Virus record (IMG/VR): IMGVR_UViG_2737471839_000021 | Coordinates: 1 to 11,464 of that record | Length of the DNA stretch: 11,464 bases | Strand: one strand, 5' to 3' | Source: a virus | Taxonomy: Duplodnaviria > Heunggongvirae > Uroviricota > Caudoviricetes | Shown: positions 1-11,464 of the stretch, in pieces | How the letters are laid out: the number at the start of each line of letters is the position of its first letter | Position numbering within the stretch: the stretch's first letter is position 1 | Notes under the pieces: generated by a model | Databases searched by the model: none | Told to the model about the DNA's origin: nothing | Seen by the model: the letters and a program-made list of their open reading frames with translations, nothing else | Translations under genes and position numbers: made by a program

Positions 1-384
1 GCATACGAGATCGCAAAGGACTATTACGCTGGTGTGATGGCGAAAAAAGGCGTGGTATCAGGCGAAATTGACAATGATATCTGGAAACAGGCTGTTAACG
101 TAGCTACAGGTGGCGTGCATGACTATAACGGAATGGGGAATGTTCTTTTGCCGTGGGGAATGTCTGCAGAGCAATTCGATAAGCAGGTTAATCAGGCTTG
201 GAATGAACAAGTTGTCGGCACAGGGATAAAAACACCGCCTGGTCAGTATGGTTTGCAAAGTTACGGCGATAGTCAGTACCTGGTAAAACTTGGGACTGGA
301 TATCTGCTGAAGGATGATGGTTCTCCTGTTGTTCTTGATCTGACACAGAAGCGTCAGAGATTCTCCGGAGATATTCCGCAATGA
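1..384 (+). CDS. 3' fragment of a phage virion gene; the 5' end lies upstream of the window
   Basis: Frame 1 is open from base 1 to TGA at 382-384, so the listed 34..384 ORF is a 5'-truncated gene. Its stop overlaps the next start (ATGA at 381-384), typical of coupled phage structural operons. No recognisable motif. Confidence 0.5.
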   Translation, partial: AYEIAKDYYAGVMAKKGVVSGEIDNDIWKQAVNVATGGVHDYNGMGNVLLPWGMSAEQFDKQVNQAWNEQVVGTGIKTPPGQYGLQSYGDSQYLVKLGTGYLLKDDGSPVVLDLTQKRQRFSGDIPQ

Positions 385-2183
385 GTTACTTTGGCCTTAA
401 TCCAGTAAACCAGAATCAGCAGCTTGACGAAGCAGTATCAAATCCAGCTGGCTTTAACAGCGATGTTGGTTTTTTCGACAATGCTGTAGGAGCGGCATTG
501 TCTGGTTTGTACTCCGGGCTGGTGGCAAAGCCAGATCAGTTGCTATGGGCAGGGATGGATAAAATCGTATCCCCGATTGCTCAGTTTGTTAACGAAAACA
601 CCTCGCTCAATGACACTTCAGTTTCATACATTGCCGAGCAGAGAAAACTAGCAGAGCAGCAGGTTAAGCGGCTGACGCCTGATGCCGCGACAACCGGAAC
701 CGCAGGGCAGGTTCTTTATGGGTTGTTCGATATGGGCGGGCAGGCTGTTGTCGGTACAACGCTCGGTGGTCAGGTCGGAGGTGCGGCGGCGGTAACTTCG
801 CTACAGGGTTTTTCTGAGTTTGAACGGCTGACAGCACAGGGTGTTGATTTCAGGACAGCGCAGGAAGCGGGATTAGTGCAGGGCATTACTGCTGGTGCCG
901 GAACATTGATCCCTATGAGCCTCGGGTTACGTGCTGGTGGTGCGCTGGCGGAAGGTGTGGCGGCTCAGCTCGCGCGGACGGGTGAGAGTTCAGTGCGACG
1001 CGCCGCAGCAACAGCAGTACGTGCAACGCCAGATATTGCCTATGCCGCAGGTACAAATATTGCGTTCGGTATGGCACAGCGTGGGCTTACTGCAAAAACG
1101 CTTCGTGATGGTGGCTATAGCGAAATGGCTAACCAGTATGATGTGTTGGATCGACAGGCAATTGCTATTGATGCTGTTCTTGGGGTGGCGTTTGGTGGTG
1201 TTGGCAGATTTATTAACTCTCGCGGCGAGTCTACAAGCGCACCAAATTTTTCACCAGTTGATGTCGATGCTGCACTGGCGGCGAATGCCGCTCATCATGC
1301 TGAAATTGATATTGCTCCCGGCGTGCCGATCAACGTGCTTTCGCGCAATTCTCACATTCAGGCTCTGCGAAAAGCTATGTCTGATGTTAGCCAGGGGAGA
1401 CCTGTAGACGTTGCCAGCATTGTTGAGTCTGCATCTTTCAGTGAAATTCCAGGGCGCAAGAGTCTGCTGTCTCAGGCAGTTAATGAGGCTCTGTCATCTG
1501 TAGATGATGGAGTAACGGCGCGCGCTATAGAAAATCGGTTGCTTGAAGAACAGGCCGCGCAGCTTTTGCCGCGTGGCGATAGACAGGTTTACCAGTCTGA
1601 AATCGCTAATAGCCAACGAATTATTGAAAATCTCACTGAACAGCGCGCACAAATTCTTGCAGAAGAGCCAACAGGTAGCGGTAAAGCTTTGTCTCGTGCT
1701 CGATCAGATAAACAGGTCAGACTTCACGATATTGACCAACGAATCCGGCAGGCACAAGAACGCCTGGAATTTTCCCGTAACGCGTTGGCACCGCATGAGC
1801 CTGGCGGTCAGTTTTTTGAAGCTCGAGCAGAACTGGCACGGCGACAGCAGGCTGAAAGTGAACTTAATGCTCAGGCTGTTTCATTCTATAAAACAGCAGA
1901 GGTAAGTACGCCAGACGAAGTAGCTCCTTTTGAGCCCGGTAAGATATTGCAACAGGCAGAACAAAAGATGATGGCAGATCCGGCAGGAGATATTGATCTG
2001 CGCATAGCTGAAGATTCGCTGCTTGAATCACCGGACATGATAATAACCGTGCTGGATGATGATGGTAATCCACAATCGCGCAGCGCGCGTGAAGTGCTGG
2101 ATGAAGCGAACAGGGAAAGTGAGCAGGCAATACACGATTCCAGCCTGTTTGATGTCGCTGTGGCGTGTTTCTTGAGAGGTTAA
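381..2183 (+). CDS. Putative internal virion / ejection protein (600 aa)
   Basis: Long ORF in operon position just upstream of the tailspike. Gly/Ala/Thr-rich low-complexity N-terminal third, charged helical C-terminal half, no catalytic motif seen. Start overlaps upstream stop. Functional label rests on position and composition only. Confidence 0.55.
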   Translation: MSYFGLNPVNQNQQLDEAVSNPAGFNSDVGFFDNAVGAALSGLYSGLVAKPDQLLWAGMDKIVSPIAQFVNENTSLNDTSVSYIAEQRKLAEQQVKRLTPDAATTGTAGQVLYGLFDMGGQAVVGTTLGGQVGGAAAVTSLQGFSEFERLTAQGVDFRTAQEAGLVQGITAGAGTLIPMSLGLRAGGALAEGVAAQLARTGESSVRRAAATAVRATPDIAYAAGTNIAFGMAQRGLTAKTLRDGGYSEMANQYDVLDRQAIAIDAVLGVAFGGVGRFINSRGESTSAPNFSPVDVDAALAANAAHHAEIDIAPGVPINVLSRNSHIQALRKAMSDVSQGRPVDVASIVESASFSEIPGRKSLLSQAVNEALSSVDDGVTARAIENRLLEEQAAQLLPRGDRQVYQSEIANSQRIIENLTEQRAQILAEEPTGSGKALSRARSDKQVRLHDIDQRIRQAQERLEFSRNALAPHEPGGQFFEARAELARRQQAESELNAQAVSFYKTAEVSTPDEVAPFEPGKILQQAEQKMMADPAGDIDLRIAEDSLLESPDMIITVLDDDGNPQSRSAREVLDEANRESEQAIHDSSLFDVAVACFLRG

Positions 2184-2188
2184 ATTAA

Positions 2189-4663
2189 ATGAGACAGGAA
2201 TGTATACAAGCGGTCCAGCAGGCGGCGCAGCGCACGTTAACGGCGCGAGAAATACAGAACATTGAAGACCGCATTTATCGAAATATGCGCTCCATTGCTC
2301 GTGATGACCCGATGTCGTGGCGACAACTTTCCGAATCAGAACGGTTGTATCGTGCAGCACAATTGGCATCTGAAGAATTACAGCGAGAAGCGGCATTAAA
2401 GAAACGTCGTGTGGCCCTCACTATAGCCGCACGTCAGAGATTGGATAAATTTATCAATAGCTATCAAGGGGCTGATGGGAAACTTGGCGCTCTTAACCGT
2501 ACTATTGCTTTTAATGCAGACGGTAAATCGAATTTCCTCTCTGTTGAATCCAGAACAAAAGCCACCCGTGATTATGCATTGAGTCGATTGCAGGAGGCAT
2601 TCGAAGCAGTTGATCCTCGCTTTTTTGGTCTGTTTGAAGATGAAGCGGGCGTACGTGACCTGGTATATGAAATGCGGGGGCAAAATACTGGCAATGCTAA
2701 AGCAAGAAAAGGTGCTAAGGCGTGGAGAGAAGTTACAGAGCTGCTGCGCCGCCGGTTTAATGATGCTGGTGGGGACATTGGCTATCTCGAAAACTGGGGG
2801 ATCCCTCAACATCATTCTATGGAAAAGGTTGGGGCGGTATCAAAAGATAAATGGGTTAGCGATATTATAGGTAAGCTGGATCGCAAATATTATACCCGAG
2901 CCGATGGACAACTGATGAACGATGCCGAGTTGTCTGCATTTCTTGGAGAGGCTTATAACACGATCGCTACTGGTGGGCTGAATAAGCTTACTGATACCGG
3001 AATGCGAATTTCCGGCGCACGTGCTAACCGTGGTAATGCATCACGACAGATACATTTCAAAGATGCAGATTCCTATCTCCAATATCAACAACTTTATGGC
3101 GATCGCTCTCTATGGGAAATCATGGTCGGTCACCTGGAAGGTATCAGTAAAGATATTGCTCTGGTGGAAACATATGGTCCAAACCCCGATCATGTTTTCC
3201 GCTCCCTTCTTGATCAGGTTAAGGCAGAAACGGCAACAGCTAACCCGAGTAAAACCGGTAAAGTCGAGCGGCTGGCGAACAACACAGAGAATCTGTACAA
3301 CTTTATTTCCGGAAAGACACAGCCTGTAGCGAATCCGCACATCGCGCGATGGTCTGACAATATCCGCAACTGGCTGGTTGCCAGCAGACTCGGATCCGCG
3401 TTGCTGTCATCGTTCTCTGATCTTGGAACCATGTATCTGTCTGCGAAGGTTACCAACCTTCCAATGAACCAGTTATTCCGCAACCAACTTGAAGCTATGG
3501 ACCCAACGAACCGTACAGAACTTGCGCGGGCGCGCCGCGCTGGTCTGGCGATGGAATCTCTACTTGGCAGCGTTAACCGATGGGCGATGGATAATATGGG
3601 GCCGTCAGTGTCTCGTTGGGCGGCGACGGCGGTAATGCGTGCCAGTGGGCTTACAGCATGGTCAGATGCGCACAAGCGCGCCTATGGCGTAACCATGATG
3701 GGAAGCCTGGGAGAAGTAGTGTCACGGACACCAGACCTTCGTAGCCTCGATGACTCTGATTTTCGTATCCTGAAAAGCAAAGGGATTACTGACACAGACT
3801 GGAGCGTATGGAAGTTGGCGCAACAGGAGGACTGGGGGAACGGTAATAATACGATGCTGACACCAGAAAGCATTATGCGTATCCCTGATTCAGCAGTTAA
3901 ACATCTTGGTGAGCCTGAACGCGTGAAATTTGAGGCAATGCGTAAACTGCTCGGTGCCGTAACTGAAGAAGTTGATATGGCTGTTATTACACCGGGAGCA
4001 CGTGAGAAACTGATAACCGGTTCTGGTATTCAGCGTGGAACATGGAAAGGTGAATTAACGAGAAGTGTTTTCCTGTTTAAATCGTTCCCTATCTCGGTTG
4101 TTATGCGTCACTGGTCACGCGCTATGGGTATGCCGTCTGCTGGTGGGCGTGCGGCATATATTGCGACGTTTATTGCCAGTACGACCATTCTTGGCGCTTT
4201 GTCGCAGCAACTTAACGACCTTGCGTCGGGTCGTAATCCTCGAGAGATGACAGGAGAAGATGCCGCAAAATTCTGGCTTGGTGCTCTACTGAAAGGTGGT
4301 GGTCTTGGCCTTTACGGTGACTTTTTATTGTCAGATCACACTAGGTACGGAAGCGGCGCGCTGGCGTCGATGCTTGGCCCGGTAGCTGGTCTGGTTGATG
4401 ACGTAGTGAAGATTGCTCAGGGCATACCGTTAAATGCTGTGGAAGGGAAGAGTGAGCAGACTGGTGGTGATCTGGTGAAGCTGGGGAAAGGTTTGATGCC
4501 AGGTGCGAATCTCTGGTACTTGAAGGCGGCTCTCGATCACATGATCTTTAACCAGATGCAGGAGTATTTTTCACCAGGCTATTTGCGTAAAATGGAGCAA
4601 CGTTCGAAGAAAGAGTTTAACCAGACATACTGGTGGCGACCTCAGGATGTCACTCCGCAATAA
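2189..4663 (+). CDS. Putative large internal virion / ejection protein (824 aa)
   Basis: Starts 6 nt after the previous stop with GAGAGG about 9 nt upstream. Uninterrupted 2.4 kb ORF with a Gly-rich hydrophobic C-terminal segment (GGGLGLYGDFLL...GPVAGLVDDV). Size and position fit the large core/ejection protein of podoviruses; no sequence search was possible. Confidence 0.55.
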   Translation: MRQECIQAVQQAAQRTLTAREIQNIEDRIYRNMRSIARDDPMSWRQLSESERLYRAAQLASEELQREAALKKRRVALTIAARQRLDKFINSYQGADGKLGALNRTIAFNADGKSNFLSVESRTKATRDYALSRLQEAFEAVDPRFFGLFEDEAGVRDLVYEMRGQNTGNAKARKGAKAWREVTELLRRRFNDAGGDIGYLENWGIPQHHSMEKVGAVSKDKWVSDIIGKLDRKYYTRADGQLMNDAELSAFLGEAYNTIATGGLNKLTDTGMRISGARANRGNASRQIHFKDADSYLQYQQLYGDRSLWEIMVGHLEGISKDIALVETYGPNPDHVFRSLLDQVKAETATANPSKTGKVERLANNTENLYNFISGKTQPVANPHIARWSDNIRNWLVASRLGSALLSSFSDLGTMYLSAKVTNLPMNQLFRNQLEAMDPTNRTELARARRAGLAMESLLGSVNRWAMDNMGPSVSRWAATAVMRASGLTAWSDAHKRAYGVTMMGSLGEVVSRTPDLRSLDDSDFRILKSKGITDTDWSVWKLAQQEDWGNGNNTMLTPESIMRIPDSAVKHLGEPERVKFEAMRKLLGAVTEEVDMAVITPGAREKLITGSGIQRGTWKGELTRSVFLFKSFPISVVMRHWSRAMGMPSAGGRAAYIATFIASTTILGALSQQLNDLASGRNPREMTGEDAAKFWLGALLKGGGLGLYGDFLLSDHTRYGSGALASMLGPVAGLVDDVVKIAQGIPLNAVEGKSEQTGGDLVKLGKGLMPGANLWYLKAALDHMIFNQMQEYFSPGYLRKMEQRSKKEFNQTYWWRPQDVTPQ

Positions 4664-4672
4664 GGAAGTGTT

Positions 4673-4846
4673 GTGTTTTTAATTATTTTGAGTGTGATAA
4701 TTTCTGGTGGATTGTTATTTATTGACCGCTACAAATATTTTCTTAACCCTCAGACTCAAGCTATTTGCTGGTTCATCTTTGTTGTGCAGGGAGTAGTTCT
4801 TGTTGCAAGCCTTATTGAGGGGAGGCCTCTTATTTTTACTGGGTAA
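4673..4846 (+). CDS. Possible small two-TM membrane peptide (about 57 aa), GTG start, absent from the ATG-based ORF track
   Basis: Frame-2 ORF open from 4664 to TAA 4844-4846. AAGGAAG (4662-4668) lies just upstream of GTG 4673; alternative starts TTG 4688 and GTG 4694. Translation ...LIILSVIISGGLLFIDRYKYFLNPQTQAICWFIFVVQGVVLVASLIEGRPLIFTG has two hydrophobic helices. It fills an otherwise empty 195-bp gap and ends 12 nt before the next gene. Non-ATG start keeps confidence low. Confidence 0.3.
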   Translation: MFLIILSVIISGGLLFIDRYKYFLNPQTQAICWFIFVVQGVVLVASLIEGRPLIFTG

Positions 4847-4858
4847 ATAGGTGACTAC

Positions 4859-5155
4859 ATGCAAGCTATAGGATTCATTGTTTATATCGTCGTTGGTCTT
4901 TTTCAGTTGGCAGCAATTATGGCTGGGCTTGAATCATGGTGGGGATTGCACTGGATAATTGCAGCCCCCATTGCTTTCATCGTGAGCTATATTCCATTTG
5001 TTGGAGCGATTGTTGGTATGGTTGGCGCTGTGGATGTATGGCGGTGGGAGTGGTGGCAGGCTGGCCTTCTCTTCTTTGGTGGGATCATCTTTGCTATTGT
5101 CTGCGGTGGAATGTCATCATTTTTCGAATGGCTATCATTCAGAAAAGGGACGTGA
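4859..5155 (+). CDS. Small Trp-rich integral membrane protein (98 aa, about 3 TM helices), unknown function
   Basis: ATG at 4859 preceded by AGGTGA. Three long hydrophobic segments (IGFIVYIVVGLFQLAAIMAGL, WIIAAPIAFIVSYIPFVGAIVGMVGAV, AGLLFFGGIIFAIVCGG) with Trp clusters at the segment borders. Followed directly by an intrinsic terminator. Confidence 0.6.
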   Translation: MQAIGFIVYIVVGLFQLAAIMAGLESWWGLHWIIAAPIAFIVSYIPFVGAIVGMVGAVDVWRWEWWQAGLLFFGGIIFAIVCGGMSSFFEWLSFRKGT

Positions 5156-5190
5156 CATGTCACAGGCCGCTTTCGCGGCCTTTTCTTTAT
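5152..5190. terminator. Bidirectional intrinsic terminator between convergent genes
   Basis: Perfect 12-bp palindrome GTGACATGTCAC (5152-5163) overlaps the TGA of the membrane-protein gene. It is followed by a GC hairpin AGGCCGC-tttc-GCGGCCT (5164-5181) and a T-run (5182-5188). On the minus strand the same hairpins are followed by TTTTCT. Confidence 0.55.
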
Positions 5191-5444
5191 GTGGTTTGTT
5201 TTCGTAATTGTTCGGCACAATAGTCGAGATGTGTTTGCAGATCCTGCATAGACATCTGTGAGCTGGTGACGTAGTTAATCAGTGCAGTCAGTTCGGCAAG
5301 TGGGCCATCGACATTAAATCCATCCTTATCGAGATCCCGGAGTAATTTCATCAAGTGCGATCCCTCCACCAGTGATCTGACGCCTCCCGGCGTGTGAATC
5401 CTTTCGGTAAATCCGTCTTCCAGTGGATAGTGATACTGCTGCAT
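5187..5444 (-). CDS. Small soluble acidic protein (85 aa) of unknown function with a LexA box in its promoter; candidate SOS-inducible antirepressor or effector
   Basis: Minus-strand ORF. The track begins at a TTG (5462), but the first ATG (5444) is preceded by GGAGAAG with about 8-nt spacing, so 5444 is taken as start. Product MQQYHYPLEDGFTERIHTPGG...DYCAEQLRKQTT has no TM segment. LexA box lies 20 bp upstream. Confidence 0.6.
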   Translation of the reverse strand: MQQYHYPLEDGFTERIHTPGGVRSLVEGSHLMKLLRDLDKDGFNVDGPLAELTALINYVTSSQMSMQDLQTHLDYCAEQLRKQTT

Positions 5445-5463
5445 CTTATCTTCTCCATGCAAT

Positions 5464-5483
5464 AACTGTATATTTATACAGTA
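5464..5483. promoter_or_regulatory. LexA (SOS) operator, near-consensus
   Basis: AACTGTATATTTATACAGTA: CTGT-N8-ACAG with an AT-rich spacer, matching the E. coli LexA consensus TACTG(TA)5CAGTA; the core ACTGTATA..TATACAGT is a perfect palindrome. Sits 20-40 bp upstream of the minus-strand start at 5444, overlapping the expected promoter. Confidence 0.65.
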
Positions 5484-5639
5484 TCAAATAATTTGTTTGC
5501 TATCCAGCACGTTTTGCAAATCACCTGAAAGGTAATATCTGTTCGTATTTATGGGTTGTCTATCCATATGTGGTTTTTCAGGTAATAGAATAACCGGATA
5601 TGCGGCGCAACGGGTGCTGCGACTATCTGGAGATTTAAC

Positions 5640-8279
5640 ATGACGGTCTCAACCGAAGTTAACCACAACGAATACACAGGTAATGGTGTTACGACCACAT
5701 TCCCTTACACCTTTAGGGTTTTCAATAAATCTGATCTGGTGGTGCAGGTTATTGACCTTGAAGAAAATATCGCTGTGCTGGCTCCTGATACTGATTACAC
5801 CGTTACCGGGGCTGGAGGATATAACGGCGGTAATGTAATTCTGTCGAAGGCACTGGCTAACGGTTATCAGATTTCTATATCGCGAGAACTGAAGGTTACT
5901 CAGGAAACAGATCTGAGAAACCAGGGTAAGTTTTTTGCTGAGGTGCATGAAGACGCGTTCGATAAGCTGACTATGCTGATTCAGCAGGTGCGCAGTTTGT
6001 TTTCTCTGGCCCTTCGTAAGCCGTCGTTTGTGGCTAACTATTATGATGCTCTGAACAACTATATTAGAAATCTTCGCGATCCCATACGCCAACAGGATGC
6101 GGCTACAAAGAACTATGTGGATATGCTTGCTGAAAATAATATAAACAAAACACTGCGTGTTCCTGAGGGTTTTATACCATCACTTCCACCTGTATCTCAG
6201 CGAAAAAACAAAATTGTAGCTATGAACGATAATGGCGTTCCAATTATGGTATTGCCGGAAAGCGGTTCTGCTGCGGATGTGCTTATAGAGTTAGCTAAAT
6301 CCAATGGCACAAATAATATAAACGGAACAAAACACGTTCTTGGAGCTGAAGCAAGAAATCTTACTGACATGTTGTCTGACGAGATATCAGTTCGTGATTT
6401 TGGTGGTAATGATGATTACGATGGAACAAATTCTGATTCATGCACAAATAACCTGATTGCTTTTCAAAAATATTTTGAATACCTGAACTCTATTGGTGGT
6501 GGGAATTTAAATATACCAAAGACAAACACAGGCAAGTATTATATTAGTGGTGATGATCATACGCATGTGTCAAGTGATATTATGATATGTGCTGATAATG
6601 ATGTTTCTATTCATCTAAATTTTTCTGGTGGGTCATCAAACACTCCATTTGCTAACCTTGACCTGAAAGCATTACGTCAAATAAAAATAGAGTATGTTAA
6701 TTTTGGTTACAATTCATATGTTGGTGGGAGAGTCGATGTTCCGTTAGGTGACTTACTGCAAACCATGAATAATGGTAGCGGTGTCTACTCAATTCCAGAA
6801 TCTCTATCAGGAGATAATTTTTTCGTTATCGCACTGGGTAACAACACCACATCAATACCTCCGATATCATCAAGTGCAGATTCTATTTTATTTAATGGTT
6901 CAGGTGTTCCAACAGCGGCCACGATAAGCGCAATGCCTGGCGATGAAATTATGTCAATGGTTAGCGCACCGGTAACAGGAGGTATCCTTGCTGGTGTTGT
7001 GACGGCCGGTGGTTATGCGTTTGTATCTCAAGATACATCAACCGGAGATGTTGTTATTGCAGAAGGTACAACTGGTCAGCCAAATATACTTAACGGATTG
7101 AATTACGCTCTGATGGACCAATTGCGCGATAGATTTGACATGGCGCTGCTATCAGTAAAAGTTACTTCATCAAGAACTTTTACTGTAATGGCGAATGGTT
7201 TGGCAGTCGCAAGCCACACGACACGCTCGACAATTCTTGGTGTCTGTTTTGGTGCTAAAGATATTAACAATACAATCAGTGTTTCTCAGATGTCGCGTGT
7301 AAGGGGGAATAGCTTTTCTGGATCAAAACCATTAAAAATATTGGTATGCGGGGATTCTATTACTGATCAAAATAACCAGTATTCATGGGCCAAATATCTC
7401 CAGATGCAGTTGGGATCAGCTGGGATTAACATTGCTGAAATTAAAAATCTGGCAGTTGCTGGCCATACGGCAGCACAGCAATTAAGCATATTGCAGACAG
7501 TAGGCGTTGGTTATGATCTGTGCTTAATTCAGGTCGGAGTTAATGATGTTCAGATGCAAACTCCTGTTTTTAGTTTTATGTCAACAATAAGTCAAATGGT
7601 TACTTATTCTAAAAGCATTGGCGCATTTCCTATTGTTGGTGTACCAACGGCTTTTTATTCTCTTGCCGAAGCGAATGCTAACGGTCAAAGAGGAGGCCAG
7701 AATACATCAAACAATAATCTTATAGGTTTGTATCGTTCTTTGCTTATACGAGCTGTGGCATCGGCTGGTGGGATTGTTAATCTTGAACCTATGAAAGGAC
7801 ATGGGGCGATGACAGCGAAGTGGCTATCGATTGATCCGTATGCTGTTAGTGACAGCATTGTATTAGATAACATTCACCCAACACCATACGGTTCAATGCT
7901 ACTTGCGCAGGGATTCTCGCGCAGCATTATTGGTTGGCTTACTCGCCCTGATTTAACAGCAACAGAAAGTTTTGAATCAATCCCTACTCAGTGGTTAAGT
8001 CCCGGTTTTGGTACGACGTCGCTACCTAAAATCAAAGGAAGAACATTATCTGGTTTAATTAGTTTACATGAAACAAACATAAATGATGGCTCATTAGCAT
8101 TTACTCTGCCTCCTGCAATAAAACTTGATCAGCCAAGAATGCTAAGCGTTATTGGTGTTGGAGACAATGATCTCCCGGTTGGTCCATGCAGCATGTATAT
8201 AGGCACTGACGGAAAATGCTATTTTTTTAACCTTGCAGCAGGAACGAAGAAAATCTCACTTGATGGAGTTGAGATTTAG
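5640..8279 (+). CDS. Tailspike / tail fibre (879 aa): T7 gp17-like N-terminal anchor, beta-helix signature, SGNH/GDSL esterase domain
   Basis: ATG 5640 with GGAG upstream. Residues about 10-150 follow the T7 gp17 N-terminal tail-attachment pattern (YTGNG..FPYTF, TDYTV, EVHEDAFDKL). Around residue 250, SVRDFGGNDDYDGTNSD resembles the (V)xDFGAxGDGxTDD opening of beta-helix tailspikes. SGNH blocks: GDSIT (Ser 573, nt 7356-7358), GVND (res 633-636), DNIH (Asp 743/His 746, nt 7866-7877). Confidence 0.85.
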   Translation: MTVSTEVNHNEYTGNGVTTTFPYTFRVFNKSDLVVQVIDLEENIAVLAPDTDYTVTGAGGYNGGNVILSKALANGYQISISRELKVTQETDLRNQGKFFAEVHEDAFDKLTMLIQQVRSLFSLALRKPSFVANYYDALNNYIRNLRDPIRQQDAATKNYVDMLAENNINKTLRVPEGFIPSLPPVSQRKNKIVAMNDNGVPIMVLPESGSAADVLIELAKSNGTNNINGTKHVLGAEARNLTDMLSDEISVRDFGGNDDYDGTNSDSCTNNLIAFQKYFEYLNSIGGGNLNIPKTNTGKYYISGDDHTHVSSDIMICADNDVSIHLNFSGGSSNTPFANLDLKALRQIKIEYVNFGYNSYVGGRVDVPLGDLLQTMNNGSGVYSIPESLSGDNFFVIALGNNTTSIPPISSSADSILFNGSGVPTAATISAMPGDEIMSMVSAPVTGGILAGVVTAGGYAFVSQDTSTGDVVIAEGTTGQPNILNGLNYALMDQLRDRFDMALLSVKVTSSRTFTVMANGLAVASHTTRSTILGVCFGAKDINNTISVSQMSRVRGNSFSGSKPLKILVCGDSITDQNNQYSWAKYLQMQLGSAGINIAEIKNLAVAGHTAAQQLSILQTVGVGYDLCLIQVGVNDVQMQTPVFSFMSTISQMVTYSKSIGAFPIVGVPTAFYSLAEANANGQRGGQNTSNNNLIGLYRSLLIRAVASAGGIVNLEPMKGHGAMTAKWLSIDPYAVSDSIVLDNIHPTPYGSMLLAQGFSRSIIGWLTRPDLTATESFESIPTQWLSPGFGTTSLPKIKGRTLSGLISLHETNINDGSLAFTLPPAIKLDQPRMLSVIGVGDNDLPVGPCSMYIGTDGKCYFFNLAAGTKKISLDGVEI

Positions 8280-8378
8280 AGTGTCAAATCAATAGTAATT
8301 ATTATCCGTAAATGGTTTATTGTGTATGATGAGTTCACCAATAAGTGAGTTCATCATGCACGTTAAACGGTGGTTTTT

Positions 8379-8783
8379 ATGTCAGTTCAGCTAACCAGTG
8401 AGTCTTTAAATCAGTGGCTTAGTGCGGGTTCTCTTGCTGCGGTGATAGCAGGTGTTCCTCCAGAGGTGGCTTTGGGAGCTTTGGCTGGGGCGGTAATTTT
8501 TGTTACCTCAGCTATCGAGTATCCCATTCATCGTCGGGTTCTCCTGTCTATGCTCAGCTTCCTCTGCGGCCTTCTCTTTTACAAACCTACAGCATCCATC
8601 CTTATCGGTGTAGCCAGCCTGATCCCTACCATCACGCAGGACTCTTTCGAGAAAGGGATCGTCTTCTCTGCTGGCGCATTTGTGTCGTCAATTGTCGCCG
8701 TGCGTATTGGTATATGGCTCTATCACCGTTCCGATAATCCACGCGAGTTAATTCCGGGGAGAAAAGACGATGGTAACGCATGA
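8379..8783 (+). CDS. Holin-like membrane protein (134 aa from ATG 8379; GTG 8370 is an alternative start)
   Basis: First gene of the lysis cassette. Three to four hydrophobic helices and a charged C-terminal tail ([18 protein letters not shown]). Track start is GTG 8370 (M-V-F-M...), first ATG 8379 with GGTGG upstream. Overlaps the next gene by 14 nt. Confidence 0.55.
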   Translation: MSVQLTSESLNQWLSAGSLAAVIAGVPPEVALGALAGAVIFVTSAIEYPIHRRVLLSMLSFLCGLLFYKPTASILIGVASLIPTITQDSFEKGIVFSAGAFVSSIVAVRIGIWLYHRSDNPRELIPGRKDDGNA

Positions 8784-9078
8784 GCTTTTTTTACTTATCA
8801 CCAATGCGGTTATTTGCACTGGTATAGCCGTTCGAGTTGTCACATTTCGGCGAAACGGTTCTCAACACAGGCGATGGGGTGGGTGGCTGGCTTATTTCCT
8901 GATTGTTGCTGCGGCCAGCATTCCAGTTCGTGTCGCTTATGCAATCTGGTTACGCACACCAATGGTTGTGGATTTATCTGAGGTCATTATCAACGCTGTC
9001 ATGCTTGCTGCAGTCATTAAAACGCGCGGTAACGTAGTTCAGATTTTCAAAATAACGAGGTCTAAACATGGAGATTAA
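8770..9078 (+). CDS. Second holin-like / antiholin membrane protein (102 aa)
   Basis: Three hydrophobic segments with a basic C-terminus ([19 protein letters not shown]). Overlaps the upstream holin-like gene and the downstream endolysin start, so it is translationally coupled within the lysis cassette. Confidence 0.55.
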
Positions 9079-9697
9079 ACAATTCCAGCGAGCTGCTGGT
9101 ATCAGCGAGGCGCTGGCTGCACGCTGGTTCTCGCATATTAATTATGCGATGAAAGAATTTGGTATCAGCAAACCAGAAGATCTGGCAATGTTTATTGCTC
9201 AGGTCGGGCATGAGTCTGTTGGCTTCACCAGATTGCAGGAGAATTTCAACTACAGTGTCAGTGGACTGGCTAACTTCGTTCGGGCTGGGCGTCTCACTCA
9301 GGGGCAGGCTAATGCACTGGGTCGCCGTGCTGGTGAACCACCATTGCCACTCGAGCGCCAGCGAGCGATCGCCAATCTGGTGTACAGCAAACGCATGGGG
9401 AACAATGCCCCTGGTGATGGCTGGAATTACCGGGGACGCGGACTTATCCAGATTACCGGTTTGAATAACTATCGTGATTGCGGAAACGGTCTGAAGGTTG
9501 ACCTGCTGGAGAGCCCTGAACTGCTGGCGCAGGACGAATATGCGGCTCGTAGCGCGGCGTGGTTCTTCGCCAGCAAAGGATGCATGAAGTATACCGGAGA
9601 TATTGCACGTGTAACTCTGATTATCAATGGCGGTAGGAATGGCATCGACGACAGGCGCGCGCGGTACATCACTGCCAGTAAGGTGCTGGTGGTATGA
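9068..9697 (+). CDS. Endolysin, glycoside hydrolase family 19 (chitinase-like) type
   Basis: 209 aa; ATG 9068 preceded by GAGG. Carries [12 protein letters not shown]...QENFNYS with two closely spaced Glu (GH19 catalytic pair arrangement) and GRGLIQITG. No signal peptide or TM, consistent with holin-dependent release. Stop overlaps the Rz start (ATGA at 9694-9697). Confidence 0.85.
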
Positions 9698-10176
9698 TCT
9701 GGGCATTCGTAAAAGCATACTGGAAACAGTTGGTTATCATGGCGATGCTTGCTGTTCTGGTTATATCAGGAGTTGTAGCCTGGAATGCACACGGCAGTCG
9801 TCAGTACGACGCCGGGTATGCGCAGGCGAAAGAAGACTGCAAAGCCGAAGAAGAAAAAGTTCGTCAGCACCACGAACAGGAGAAAGCGACCAATGAACGT
9901 GAAGCGCAGCAGAGGATCGAACAGGCGCGCAGTGATGCTCTTGATGCTGCCGCTCGCGCTGGCAGGTTGCAGCAACAGCTCGTTGCCATCCGTGAGCAGC
10001 TCAGGCAGTATAACGCCATTGTCGGCGCTGGGTCGTCAGCCGCAGATACCGGAGTTTTGCTTGCCGACGTGTTCAGCAAATCTCTCGAGAGAAATAGACA
10101 ACTGGCAGAGTATGCTGACCGGGCAGCCGAAGCCGGAAGAGTCTGCGAAAAACAGTACGACACCATGACCAGATAG
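9694..10176 (+). CDS. Rz: Rz-type inner-membrane spanin (i-spanin), 160 aa
   Basis: N-terminal TM anchor ([21 protein letters not shown]) followed by a charged, coiled-coil-prone periplasmic domain. Immediately downstream of the endolysin and contains an embedded +1-frame lipoprotein ORF. Confidence 0.8.
9893..10168 (+). CDS. Rz1: Rz1-type outer-membrane lipoprotein spanin (o-spanin), embedded in Rz in the +1 frame
   Basis: Within track ORF 9785..10168, Met at 9893 begins [28 protein letters not shown]...: basic n-region, hydrophobic core, lipobox LAGC, then a Pro/Ser-rich short mature peptide. Start could alternatively be Met 9935. Entirely inside Rz. Confidence 0.7.
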   Translation: MNVKRSRGSNRRAVMLLMLPLALAGCSNSSLPSVSSSGSITPLSALGRQPQIPEFCLPTCSANLSREIDNWQSMLTGQPKPEESAKNSTTP

Positions 10177-10325
10177 CATGGCATTTTTCATGGTACTGAT
10201 TTTTGGTGACGGTATATAAAACGGTATGGTGAAAATCATGTTGCAGAAAGTTGTTGTCAGTCAATTGGTTATGTATTTCGTAAATAATTGAGTGGGAATG
10301 ATTTGACCCTGCACTATGAATGAAC

Positions 10326-10356
10326 AAAACCCTCTGTTACTACAGAGGGTTTTTTA
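10326..10356. terminator. Intrinsic terminator downstream of the lysis cassette, probably bidirectional
   Basis: AAAACCCTCTGT-tact-ACAGAGGGTTTTTT: 10-12 bp GC-containing stem, 4-nt loop, T6 tract on the + strand. On the minus strand the same stem is followed by TTTT, downstream of the convergent gene ending at 10394. Confidence 0.65.
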
Positions 10357-10393
10357 TCTTCAAGAATTATAGGATTGAAGTTACTAACATCGA

Positions 10394-10933
10394 TTAATTA
10401 AACCAGCTGTCCGATTTGTTCTCTTCTGCTTTGCCCACGCTTTTCATCAGATCGCGACCGCCTTCAGTCATATTTCTGTTGGCGTCAGCTTCAGATTGCA
10501 CCACATCGGTTTGCGCAGCTTTGTGCTTCAGTTCCTGATCGATAAATTCGTTTTCTCGCTTAACGCGGGCTTCTTCTTTCGCCAGCGCCAGTTTTTGTTT
10601 CTGAATCTCTAAGCTGCGTAGCTCATCTTCATAACTTTGATCGCGTTTTTTGTCCGCAGAGGCTTCGGCGTCCAGTTTATCCTGACGAGCTTTCTTATTT
10701 GCCGCTGCCGTTGCCGCTCTTTTGTTAGCGGCGGCCTGGGCATTTGCGCGACGTTGCTTCTCTTGCTGGATTTCCCTGTTGCGCTCCGCGACCCATTCGT
10801 CATGCTGCCTTTGCTCTTCATTTTTACCTTGCTGTTCCGCTTCTGCGACAGCAGAGAGTTGATCCTGCAATGATGAGGCGATAGCCGGATAGCTTAAGGA
10901 GGCTAAGATGGCGCAAAGAAAAACTTTCTTCAT
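10394..10933 (-). CDS. Secreted, highly charged (K/E/R/A/Q-rich) probable coiled-coil periplasmic protein (179 aa)
   Basis: N-terminal signal peptide MKKVFLCAILASLSYPAIA with an AxA cleavage site, then low-complexity charged helical sequence. RBS AGGAGGAG upstream on the minus strand. No enzymatic motif. Confidence 0.6.
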   Translation of the reverse strand: MKKVFLCAILASLSYPAIASSLQDQLSAVAEAEQQGKNEEQRQHDEWVAERNREIQQEKQRRANAQAAANKRAATAAANKKARQDKLDAEASADKKRDQSYEDELRSLEIQKQKLALAKEEARVKRENEFIDQELKHKAAQTDVVQSEADANRNMTEGGRDLMKSVGKAEENKSDSWFN

Positions 10934-10948
10934 GACTCCTCCTGATTA

Positions 10949-11464
10949 TTAGCTCTTTTCAGGACATTTGGTATTTGGCTGAATACGCGTTTCGTTATAC
11001 GTCGTGGTAATAACAACGGCTAAACCTGTCGTAAACTGGCACTCTTTACCCACCTGGGTAGAGGTATACACTTTGGTGCCTTCCTTATAGGTTAAAGAAA
11101 CACCTTCCACTAAGGTTTTATCATTCACCATAGAACCCGCTGCCGCGCCTACAGCTCCGCCGCCAACTGCACCTGCCGTCGTTCCGGAATTGCTGCCAGA
11201 CCCGACGTTGTGGCCGATAACACCGCCAGCGACTGCGCCAATAAGCGCGCCGAAGGCTTGTGCGTTCCGTTTATTTTGGGAGTTGTCTACGGCAACTTTT
11301 GCGGGAAGAATGGAAATAATATTAACGGTTTTAGTTTCTTGTTTGGTATTCAGTTGATCGGTTTGATAAACATCGGCAGCATGATCGTCAGCATTTGACT
11401 GGCATCCTGCCAGAGTGAATGACGCTAACATTGCCACAGGCAGAAGACATTTTTTAAATTTCAT
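10949..11464 (-). CDS. Outer-membrane lipoprotein with glycine-zipper domain (SlyB / 17-kDa-antigen-like), 171 aa
   Basis: Start ATG is the last 3 nt of the window (11462-11464). Lipoprotein signal MKFKKCLLPVAMLASFTLAGCQ with lipobox LAGC. Central GALIGAVAGGVIGHNVGSGSNSGTTAGAVGGGAVGAAAG is a glycine-zipper motif as in SlyB-family lipoproteins. Runs 15 nt upstream of the secreted-protein gene on the same strand, a likely two-gene operon. Confidence 0.7.
   Translation of the reverse strand: MKFKKCLLPVAMLASFTLAGCQSNADDHAADVYQTDQLNTKQETKTVNIISILPAKVAVDNSQNKRNAQAFGALIGAVAGGVIGHNVGSGSNSGTTAGAVGGGAVGAAAGSMVNDKTLVEGVSLTYKEGTKVYTSTQVGKECQFTTGLAVVITTTYNETRIQPNTKCPEKS

Follow-up and report, generated by a model that had tools for sequence, protein, structure and literature searches.

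The A57 locus

The window analysed here is a stretch of 11,464 nucleotides (nt), positions 1 to 11,464 of the IMG/VR virus record IMGVR_UViG_2737471839_000021, and belongs to a prophage of the epsilon15/phiV10-like type (genus Uetakevirus) in an Escherichia coli chromosome. On its forward strand, immediately behind a gene for an internal virion protein, lies a small open reading frame (ORF), here named A57, which occupies 4673..4846, comprises 57 codons with a GTG start and a TAA stop (4844–4846), and encodes MFLIILSVIISGGLLFIDRYKYFLNPQTQAICWFIFVVQGVVLVASLIEGRPLIFTG; in the program-made ORF list its translation of 57 amino acids (aa) reads VFLIILSVIISGGLLFIDRYKYFLNPQTQAICWFIFVVQGVVLVASLIEGRPLIFTG, followed by the stop. 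Comparative evidence indicated that A57 is a genuine protein-coding gene for a small membrane protein, and that it stands first in a swappable cassette slot that reaches from the stop codon of the preceding gene to the terminator of the operon.

The preceding gene (2189..4663, forward strand) encodes a gp17-like internal virion or ejection protein of 824 aa, which matched phrog_684 ('virion structural protein') with E = 0 and has phiV10 p20 and SPN1S_0019 as counterparts. Its TAA stop (4661–4663) overlaps a Shine-Dalgarno (SD) sequence, AAGGAAG, on the same strand at 4662–4668, which is followed after 4 nt (TGTT) by GTG 4673; the distance from the gp17 stop to the A57 start is 9 nt. A further 12 nt separate the A57 stop from ATG 4859, the start of the second cassette gene (4859..5155, forward strand), which encodes a 98-aa protein with several transmembrane (TM) segments (phrog_3075, E = 1.6e-54). 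All three ORFs are in frame 2. The ORF list and direct reading of the sequence confirmed the initial annotation in its 57-aa ORF with a GTG start, in the AAGGAAG motif before that start and in the end of the ORF 12 nt ahead of the next membrane-protein gene. It had also described frame 2 as open throughout 4664–4858, which is correct just as far as the TAA at 4844–4846.

The A57 product is 60% hydrophobic, with two hydrophobic segments arranged around a polar loop, DRYKYFLNPQTQ. Maximal Kyte-Doolittle values for these segments, in windows of 15 residues, were 2.8 and 2.7, while AlphaFold2, when supplied with the family alignment, predicted helices at residues 2–20 and 26–49 with a mean pLDDT of 76; the two methods agreed with each other and with the two TM-like helices proposed originally. 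On this basis the protein is modelled as a helical hairpin with two hydrophobic helices. The first predicted TM helix (residues 2–17; 4676..4723, forward strand) was assigned from hydropathy and the AlphaFold2 helix at 2–20, and carries a motif of small residues, S11-G12-G13. Alignments delimited the polar loop to residues 18–29 (4724..4759, forward strand), in which the motif D-R-Y-K-Y-F-L was nearly invariant and residues 25–29, behind the motif, were hypervariable. The second predicted TM helix (residues 30–48; 4760..4816, forward strand), supported by the alignment, hydropathy and AlphaFold2, was the most conserved segment of all (CWF.FV..G..L.ASLI), and is followed by the C-terminal tail EGRPLIFTG.

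Within the last 10 codons of A57, at 4816–4839, there is a weak terminator-like hairpin (TGAGGGG-AGG-CCTCTTA, then TTTTTAC), which might attenuate transcription into the 98-aa gene. It was not evident in the one copy from outside E. coli that was compared by eye (L080, GAAGGTAAATCACTG...).

Conservation of A57 as a coding sequence

A search of 5.8 billion proteins recovered 13 clusters of A57 homologues, all 56–58 aa long and 67–98% identical to A57, with E values from 2e-28 to 2e-15 and covering 98–100% of the query. These clusters came from E. coli, Citrobacter, Klebsiella, Salmonella and Enterobacter; scans of DNA added Kluyvera, Klebsiella pneumoniae and 71 IMG/VR viral contigs, bringing the distribution to six enterobacterial genera. 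Throughout, the homologues shared a position 8–12 nt downstream of the 824-aa gp17-like gene in Uetakevirus prophages, and kept the family motifs SGGLL-x2-DRYKYFL and CWFxFV. The ORF was intact at 71 of 73 loci, the others being one that was cut by the end of its contig and one (L051) in which a 1-nt deletion three codons ahead of the stop extended the product to 60 aa. There were no indels over 55 codons among the homologues.

Divergent homologues differed from the window at 16–23% of nucleotides (27–39 differences in 168 nt). Comparison of these with A57 gave dN/dS ratios of 0.17–0.27 and dS values of 0.44–0.80, while the same ratio in the other two sense frames was about 0.5–2.3. Variable columns were distributed over the three codon positions as 27, 18 and 40, so third positions varied most. 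The initial annotation had suggested that conservation and the pattern of synonymous and nonsynonymous substitution in homologous prophages be examined as a check on the ORF; both favoured it, with purifying selection in the A57 frame only and lengths of 56–58 aa maintained across genera. When the 195-nt gap between the ATG-based ORFs was shuffled 5000 times with its dinucleotides preserved, an ORF of at least 57 aa arose in only 0.8% of cases.

Frame-disrupting indels in conserved homologous regions had been named at the outset as evidence that would count against the ORF. Such indels were encountered only rarely: in L051 (1 of 73 loci), as a -1/+1 pair in phage YDC107_2, and in a divergent sister type that is frameshifted (see below). 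The A57 copy of YDC107_2 (L001, CP025713) has its -1 and +1 indels 59 nt apart, both in homopolymers, and gp17 in the same record is broken into several coding sequences. These features point to a record rich in sequencing errors or to a decaying prophage, and the record is unfit as evidence against coding by A57.

Two other explanations for conservation of the region were tried and rejected. An antisense ORF at 4715–4864 (reverse strand) gave dN/dS ratios of 0.4–1.4 and was not conserved, and the sole antisense frame with low dN/dS over A57 was riddled with stop codons. An RNA element in place of a protein was likewise discarded; Rfam contained no credible match, and the predicted fold around the start was unremarkable (z = -1.5).

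Variation within E. coli was unevenly placed, in that codons 11–13 (TCT GGT GGA, 4703–4711) held 4 of 12 nonsynonymous variants (S11F, G12C, G12V and G13V). In Klebsiella-type copies of A57, either G12C or G13W is found. Of the four E. coli variants, three are G-to-T changes within TCTGGTGG, a sequence that shares 7 of 8 bases with Chi. Selection could have acted here on a helix-packing motif, or the cluster may mark a mutational hot-spot.

Start codon and annotation status

Alignment supported GTG 4673 as the start of A57, rather than TTG 4688 or GTG 4694. Among homologous loci the position of the start was conserved and its codon varied among GTG, TTG and ATG only, and purine-rich equivalents of the SD sequence (AAGGGGG, AAGGAGG, AAGGGGAGGGG) preceded it in every case. 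The two internal starts are disfavoured because residues 1–5 (MFLII) are themselves conserved. GTG 4673 is further preferred because the first genes of alternative cassettes (phiV10 p21 and a 137-aa lipoprotein gene) have ATG starts at the same distance of 9 nt from the gp17 stop.

The description of A57 as unannotated proved true in part. It holds for the RefSeq record of E. coli E2865, for phiv142-3, for BUCT711 and for YDC107_2; elsewhere, the exact protein has been deposited as a 'hypothetical protein' (AKK49208.1), and it occurs on 453 contigs. The 601 nt of E2865 that match window positions 4600–5200 are 100% identical to it, and the RefSeq annotation of that genome omits A57. In phiv142-3, a 118-aa call named Orf12 (L002:3401–3757, equivalent to about 4800–5156 in the window) begins inside A57 in another frame; it stands in place of A57 and the 98-aa gene and is probably a misannotation. 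A common variant, on which the phiv142-3 call was made, carries an additional T past the A57 stop (AAATTAGG). Calling A57 closes a recurrent gap in annotation, since some E. coli genomes include the gene while identical genomes, and several phage records, leave it out. The initial view of A57 as a real small membrane protein with a non-ATG start, of a kind often missed, was borne out by the comparative data; its remark that such peptides are frequent phage effectors is a generality.

Limits of the family

No Pfam family matched the A57 protein at E ≤ 0.1, no PHROG family matched it even at E ≤ 10, and there was no match among NCBIfam or PADLOC families. A profile search of the PDB produced a chance match only (E = 0.22), and a fold search of BFVD returned nothing at E ≤ 0.001. 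An exhaustive search of 1.84 billion representatives with a hidden Markov model identified just three real A57 clusters (at 50% identity), all of 58 aa. A further candidate, P0016, was dismissed as a spurious repeat protein, its score being summed over 14 stretches that matched a repeat motif, 'HRYSYFLNQ'. A literature search on epsilon15 gp18, on superinfection exclusion in Uetakevirus and phiV10, and on the epsilon15 ejection proteins found nothing on A57 or its positional analogues.

A distant homologue was identified in the cassettes of other E. coli prophages, where a 41-aa ORF (L088:373–536; also L092) is a +1-frameshifted relative of A57 with the shift in a run of five A residues. Deletion of one A from this run yields a 54-aa hairpin, the second helix of which aligned to A57 with an hhalign probability of 90%. 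The same 41-aa ORF was present in all 9 IMG/VR loci of this type and in the one complete genome inspected (CU532-9, L088), while an intact 54-aa form (P0032) was found in L171, 8 nt past an 824-aa gp17. A 44-aa form of the sister type with an in-frame deletion (P0035) also exists. A57 represents a very narrow family of uncharacterised membrane proteins of 52–58 aa, restricted to enterobacterial Uetakevirus prophages.

A cassette slot behind gp17

When the window was aligned with phiV10, the two were identical up to ...CAATAAGGA, which contains the gp17 stop and the SD sequence, and again from CGTGACATGTCACAGGCCGC..., at the terminator; the sequence between was unrelated. This rho-independent terminator (5164..5190, forward strand) has a 7-bp stem with 6 GC pairs and a T-run, closes the late structural/ejection operon, and is common to all cassette types; the records of phiV10 and epsilon15 both label the identical sequence as a terminator. 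In a comparison with L003, L084, L086, L087, L088, L170 and L176, positions 4664–5163 of the window corresponded to a recombination slot between TAAGGA and the shared terminator (GTGACATGTCAC...GGCCGC).

Across Uetakevirus prophages the slot held hairpins of 46, 54, 57 or 64 aa, alongside other contents that included two-TM proteins of 92/103 aa and 93/113 aa, the 98-aa multi-TM protein, and lipoproteins of 126 and 137 aa (phrog_3716 and phrog_8691). In phiV10 and SPN1S it is occupied by a 46-aa two-TM protein, and in epsilon15 by gp18, of 64 aa. A census was taken of 80 viral contigs in which the C-terminus of gp17 was at least 97% identical to that of the window. A57 was present in 40 of these and the unrelated 46-aa p21 type in 29; the 41-aa frameshifted ORF followed by a lipoprotein gene accounted for 9, a lipoprotein gene directly behind gp17 for 1, and the last was unclassified owing to the end of its contig. 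In another E. coli genome, the 137-aa lipoprotein gene stood directly past gp17. Cassette types were interspersed inside clusters of gp17 sequences at a nucleotide distance below 1%.

The genes behind A57 varied by genus and comprised a 126–128-aa lipoprotein, a 92-aa protein, 93-aa and 98-aa proteins, or a homologue of epsilon15 gp18. Since the downstream genes differ among genera, A57 is linked to the gp17 stop and not to the 98-aa gene, which was found elsewhere both with and without A57. Loci outside E. coli displayed an additional feature; within about 20 nt of the A57 stop there was a relic of about 95 nt that translated to the last 27 residues of epsilon15 gp17 (EFNTTSWWEPGSTTPRRAPDLGKAVGQ and a stop; L083:4178–4274), after which came the next cassette gene, a gp18 homologue in the case of L083. 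The same arrangement was seen in L005, L052, L078, L080 and L082. A relic of epsilon15-type gp17 behind A57 indicates that A57 arrived by recombination, and that the arrangement in E. coli is a derived deletion. The idea that A57 was a detached C-terminal TM module of the longer epsilon15-type gp17 (918 aa, against 824 aa) was rejected; the C-terminus of epsilon15 gp17 aligns to the end of gp17 in the window, and has no hydrophobic segment and no similarity to A57.

Base composition and divergence also set A57 apart from its neighbour. G-C content was 36.8% for A57 and 49.4% for gp17, with third-position values (G-C3) of 34.5% and 45.3%. In comparisons with other genera, dS was 0.44–0.80 for A57, while the adjacent 3' region of gp17 (3764–4660) was saturated, at 1.7–4.3; dN/dS was about 0.2 for A57 and about 0.02 for gp17. 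The three-fold or greater reduction in dS relative to gp17 points to recent horizontal spread among phages of different genera. Given its lower G-C content, much lower dS and approximately 10-fold higher dN/dS, A57 is a mobile, accessory and moderately constrained gene, rather than a core partner of gp17. More distant podoviruses that carry gp17 (Pseudomonas YA3, Yersinia YeP6, Burkholderia BcepC6B and Vibrio VP2) had no ORF at the position of the slot. The existence of a discrete slot for envelope-protein cassettes at the end of the ejection operon of epsilon15/phiV10-like phages is of more use than the definition of the family.

Expression of A57

A consensus scan of the forward strand upstream of A57 revealed no sigma70-like site, and synonymous divergence at the 3' end of gp17 showed no dip, as an embedded conserved promoter might have produced. 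A promoter embedded in the 3' end of gp17 was rejected on both grounds, the negative scan and the unsuppressed synonymous divergence. There was no strong terminator ahead of the end of the cassette, the one strong terminator being that which follows the 98-aa gene. A57 was assigned to the late operon, coupled to gp17, because of the 9-nt gap, the SD sequence overlapping the gp17 stop and the lack of a detected promoter. According to this scheme, A57 would be the last gene but one to be transcribed in the late structural/ejection operon, with its translation coupled to that of gp17 or re-initiated behind it; given this arrangement and a weak GTG or TTG start, the product would appear late and at a low level; and the protein would insert in the inner membrane, its orientation most likely N-out/C-out and its conserved basic DRYKY loop facing the cytoplasm. 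It is likely, when all of this is considered together, that A57 is a real hairpin gene in a mobile slot with coupled late expression, an estimate that sets aside any function in exclusion.

Other features of the window

Upstream of gp17 lies a gp16-like gene (381–2183). Beyond the operon terminator there is a gp19-like gene on the reverse strand (5187–5462), followed by the gene for a tailspike with a GDSL esterase domain (5640–8279), in which the GDSL/SGNH domain is C-terminal, at about residues 567–757. The lysis genes occupy 8370–10176 and encode Phage_holin_8, Phage_holin_3_7, a GH19 endolysin and an Rz-like spanin; this cassette sits 3.5 kb downstream of A57. The end of the prophage falls between the stop of the Rz-like gene (10176) and 10394, beyond which the sequence has the look of host chromosome, with two host-type genes on the reverse strand: a DUF5384 gene (10394–10933; yfgI in RefSeq) and a gene for a glycine-zipper/TraT-like lipoprotein (10949–11464).

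Window positions 4600–5200 were matched in 502 of 5426 complete E. coli genomes, and in 205 of these over at least 80% of that segment. Despite its identity to the window across these 601 nt, E. coli E2865 has, with gtrA behind it, a tailspike of the parallel beta-helix type; exchange of the receptor-binding module has therefore been independent of the slot.

Discussion

The function favoured for A57 is that of an exclusion factor acting at the level of the envelope, which would block the DNA-entry conduit of incoming related phages at the inner membrane. A SieA- or Imm-like role of this kind is tentative, and on balance not probable; it is suggested by analogy, because the position, patchy distribution, type polymorphism and envelope-only content of the slot parallel those of P22 sieA. 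A broader version was also considered, in which the interchangeable but unrelated mini-hairpins of the slot (the A57/A54, p21 and gp18 types) would be the smallest known superinfection-exclusion proteins, each jamming the inner-membrane step of the podovirus ejection conduit, coupled in a fixed ratio to the ejection proteins of its own phage and diversified by an arms race. Such diversification would account for the helix-packing hot-spot at S11-G12-G13, although the proposal as a whole is unlikely.

Several facts weigh against this interpretation, both of the gene and of its role. The evidence that A57 is translated comes from its evolution, and within E. coli there were 7 synonymous and 12 nonsynonymous variants (pN/pS about 0.5), a weak constraint not clearly distinguishable from neutrality. 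Frameshifting of the sister type in 9 of 80 loci means that its loss is tolerated. The predicted topology, with the loop in the cytoplasm, follows from the positive-inside rule. Unlike P22 sieA, A57 has no detectable promoter. If the protein appeared only late in the lytic cycle, it would protect a lysogen poorly by exclusion. Finally, profile and structure searches found no similarity of sequence or fold between A57 and SieA, Imm or any defence family.

Alternatively, A57 might modulate lysis late in infection, as a hairpin resembling holins, antiholins or pinholins that is made along with the structural proteins and adjusts the energisation of the membrane or the timing of lysis. A two-TM hairpin of small size, whose gene probably belongs to a late operon, would suit this role, and weak GTG or TTG starts are typical of dose-sensitive membrane proteins; moreover, the only Pfam match of the neighbouring 98-aa protein, below threshold, was to a holin (Phage_holin_5_2, Hol44, E = 0.027), and the best BFVD matches for A57, none of them significant, include 'holin'. 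Yet a full lysis cassette is already present at 8370–10176, A57 itself matched no holin family at E ≤ 0.1, its tail (EGRPLIFTG) is not the charged cytoplasmic tail typical of holins, and it is absent or replaced in close relatives, so that a role in lysis is quite unlikely. Closer to gp17, A57 could be a membrane cofactor, chaperone or self-immunity factor specific to that protein. The tight coupling of the two genes would then be explained, and the spacing of 8–12 nt past gp17, with an overlapping SD sequence, recurs in every lineage; a membrane protein also occupies the slot in every enterobacterial Uetakevirus phage record inspected (epsilon15 gp18, phiV10 p21, SPN1S_0020 and Tyrion gp19). 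What makes such a partnership improbable is that two prophages (L087 and L170) have a lipoprotein in the slot and others a frameshifted copy, that unrelated cassettes stand behind gp17 genes less than 1% different, leaving no co-variation, and that the position is empty in four distant podoviruses that carry gp17. In addition, the lower dS of A57 (about 0.6, with about 2 for gp17) marks it as the more recently exchanged of the two, and packaging of an integral membrane protein into capsids is itself presumed to be unlikely.

It is very improbable that A57 is not an independent gene at all, whether it arose by chance, extends gp17 through readthrough or is an N-terminus severed from the 98-aa gene. 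Such a view draws on the frame shared by gp17, A57 and the 98-aa ORF, on spacers past gp17 that are mostly 9 or 12 nt, and on the omission of A57 from E2865 by RefSeq (the NCBI pipeline). A chance ORF is, however, ruled out by frame-specific purifying selection and by conservation of length across genera. Readthrough from gp17 was rejected because in-frame spacing is not conserved: the relation is lost in L052 (10 nt), L068 (11 nt) and L065 (an in-frame TAG), and the ORF is kept in each. Nor could A57 and the 98-aa ORF be halves of one gene, since they occur independently, A57 without the 98-aa gene in L005, L052, L078, L080 and L083, and the reverse in L089; in L082, the relic and another gene stand between them, and the common E. 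coli variant carries a 1-nt insertion at their junction. The remaining functional probability belongs to something not yet imagined, or to A57 being a nearly neutral passenger.

A57 is a sound but ordinary small-gene finding, an uncharacterised example of the small accessory membrane proteins that are familiar from temperate phages. Were proteins of the A57 type to exclude related phages, host-range assays and phage-based detection would be affected, and A57 would offer a minimal model for the blocking of podovirus DNA entry. phiV10 is used for the detection of E. coli O157:H7 (PMC11854483).

Comparison with known systems

Like class II holins and pinholins, A57 is a small two-helix membrane protein of a late phage operon. 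A charged cytoplasmic C-terminal tail is a hallmark of holins; A57 differs from them in lacking a charged tail, in its position outside the lysis cassette and in the absence of any holin family match. T4 Imm is an inner-membrane protein of 83 aa with two predicted TM segments, which blocks the entry of phage DNA and is the product of an early gene of a virulent myovirus. The likeness of A57 to Imm is one of architecture only, and A57 had no match to the corresponding Pfam family (Imm_superinfect) at E ≤ 0.1.

Morons of late operons, such as HK97 gp15, an inner-membrane exclusion protein, and lambda lom and bor, resemble A57 in being mobile accessory envelope genes of low G-C content among late structural genes. 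A57 also shares with morons an atypical base composition and a patchy distribution among similar genomes. Classical morons are independent transcription units with a promoter and terminator of their own, and in this sense (that of Juhala and Hendrix) A57 departs from the type, using a ribosome-binding site at the gp17 stop and the terminator of the operon, and having no promoter of its own according to the consensus scan.

The sieA gene of P22 is accessory, being found in 22 of 66 P22-like phages, and occurs in three types with a mutual identity of about 25%; it carries a promoter of its own, and the prophage expresses it (PMC10883804). Its product, a protein of 162–164 aa in which three TM segments are predicted and an FxRYPxEAxxFNK motif is present, acts at the inner membrane to block the ejection conduit (PMC10883804). 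A57 and sieA are alike in that each is a gene for an inner-membrane protein situated, in a temperate podovirus, after the last ejection-protein gene and before the tailspike gene; in the window, the order is the gp17-like gene (2189–4663), A57, the 98-aa ORF, the terminator, the reverse-strand gene and the tailspike gene (5640–8279), and this position is an analogous one in a different group of phages. Otherwise they differ, for A57 encodes 57 aa and two helices, without the SieA motif, detectable homology or a detectable promoter, and the ejection proteins of P22 are not homologous in any simple way to gp15–17.

Positional analogues from within the Uetakevirus phages were the small proteins phiV10 p21/SPN1S_0020 (phrog_7892) and epsilon15 gp18 (phrog_29212). 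Both are unrelated to A57 in sequence (hhalign probabilities of 0.4% and 0.5%) and have ATG starts, and the gp18 type is not strictly an alternative to A57, as the two co-occur in L083. In other respects they correspond closely: they lie in the same slot, no more than 10 nt from the gp17 stop or overlapping it, and upstream of the same terminator, and they are hairpins of 46–64 aa with the first TM segment at the extreme N-terminus, followed by basic residues.

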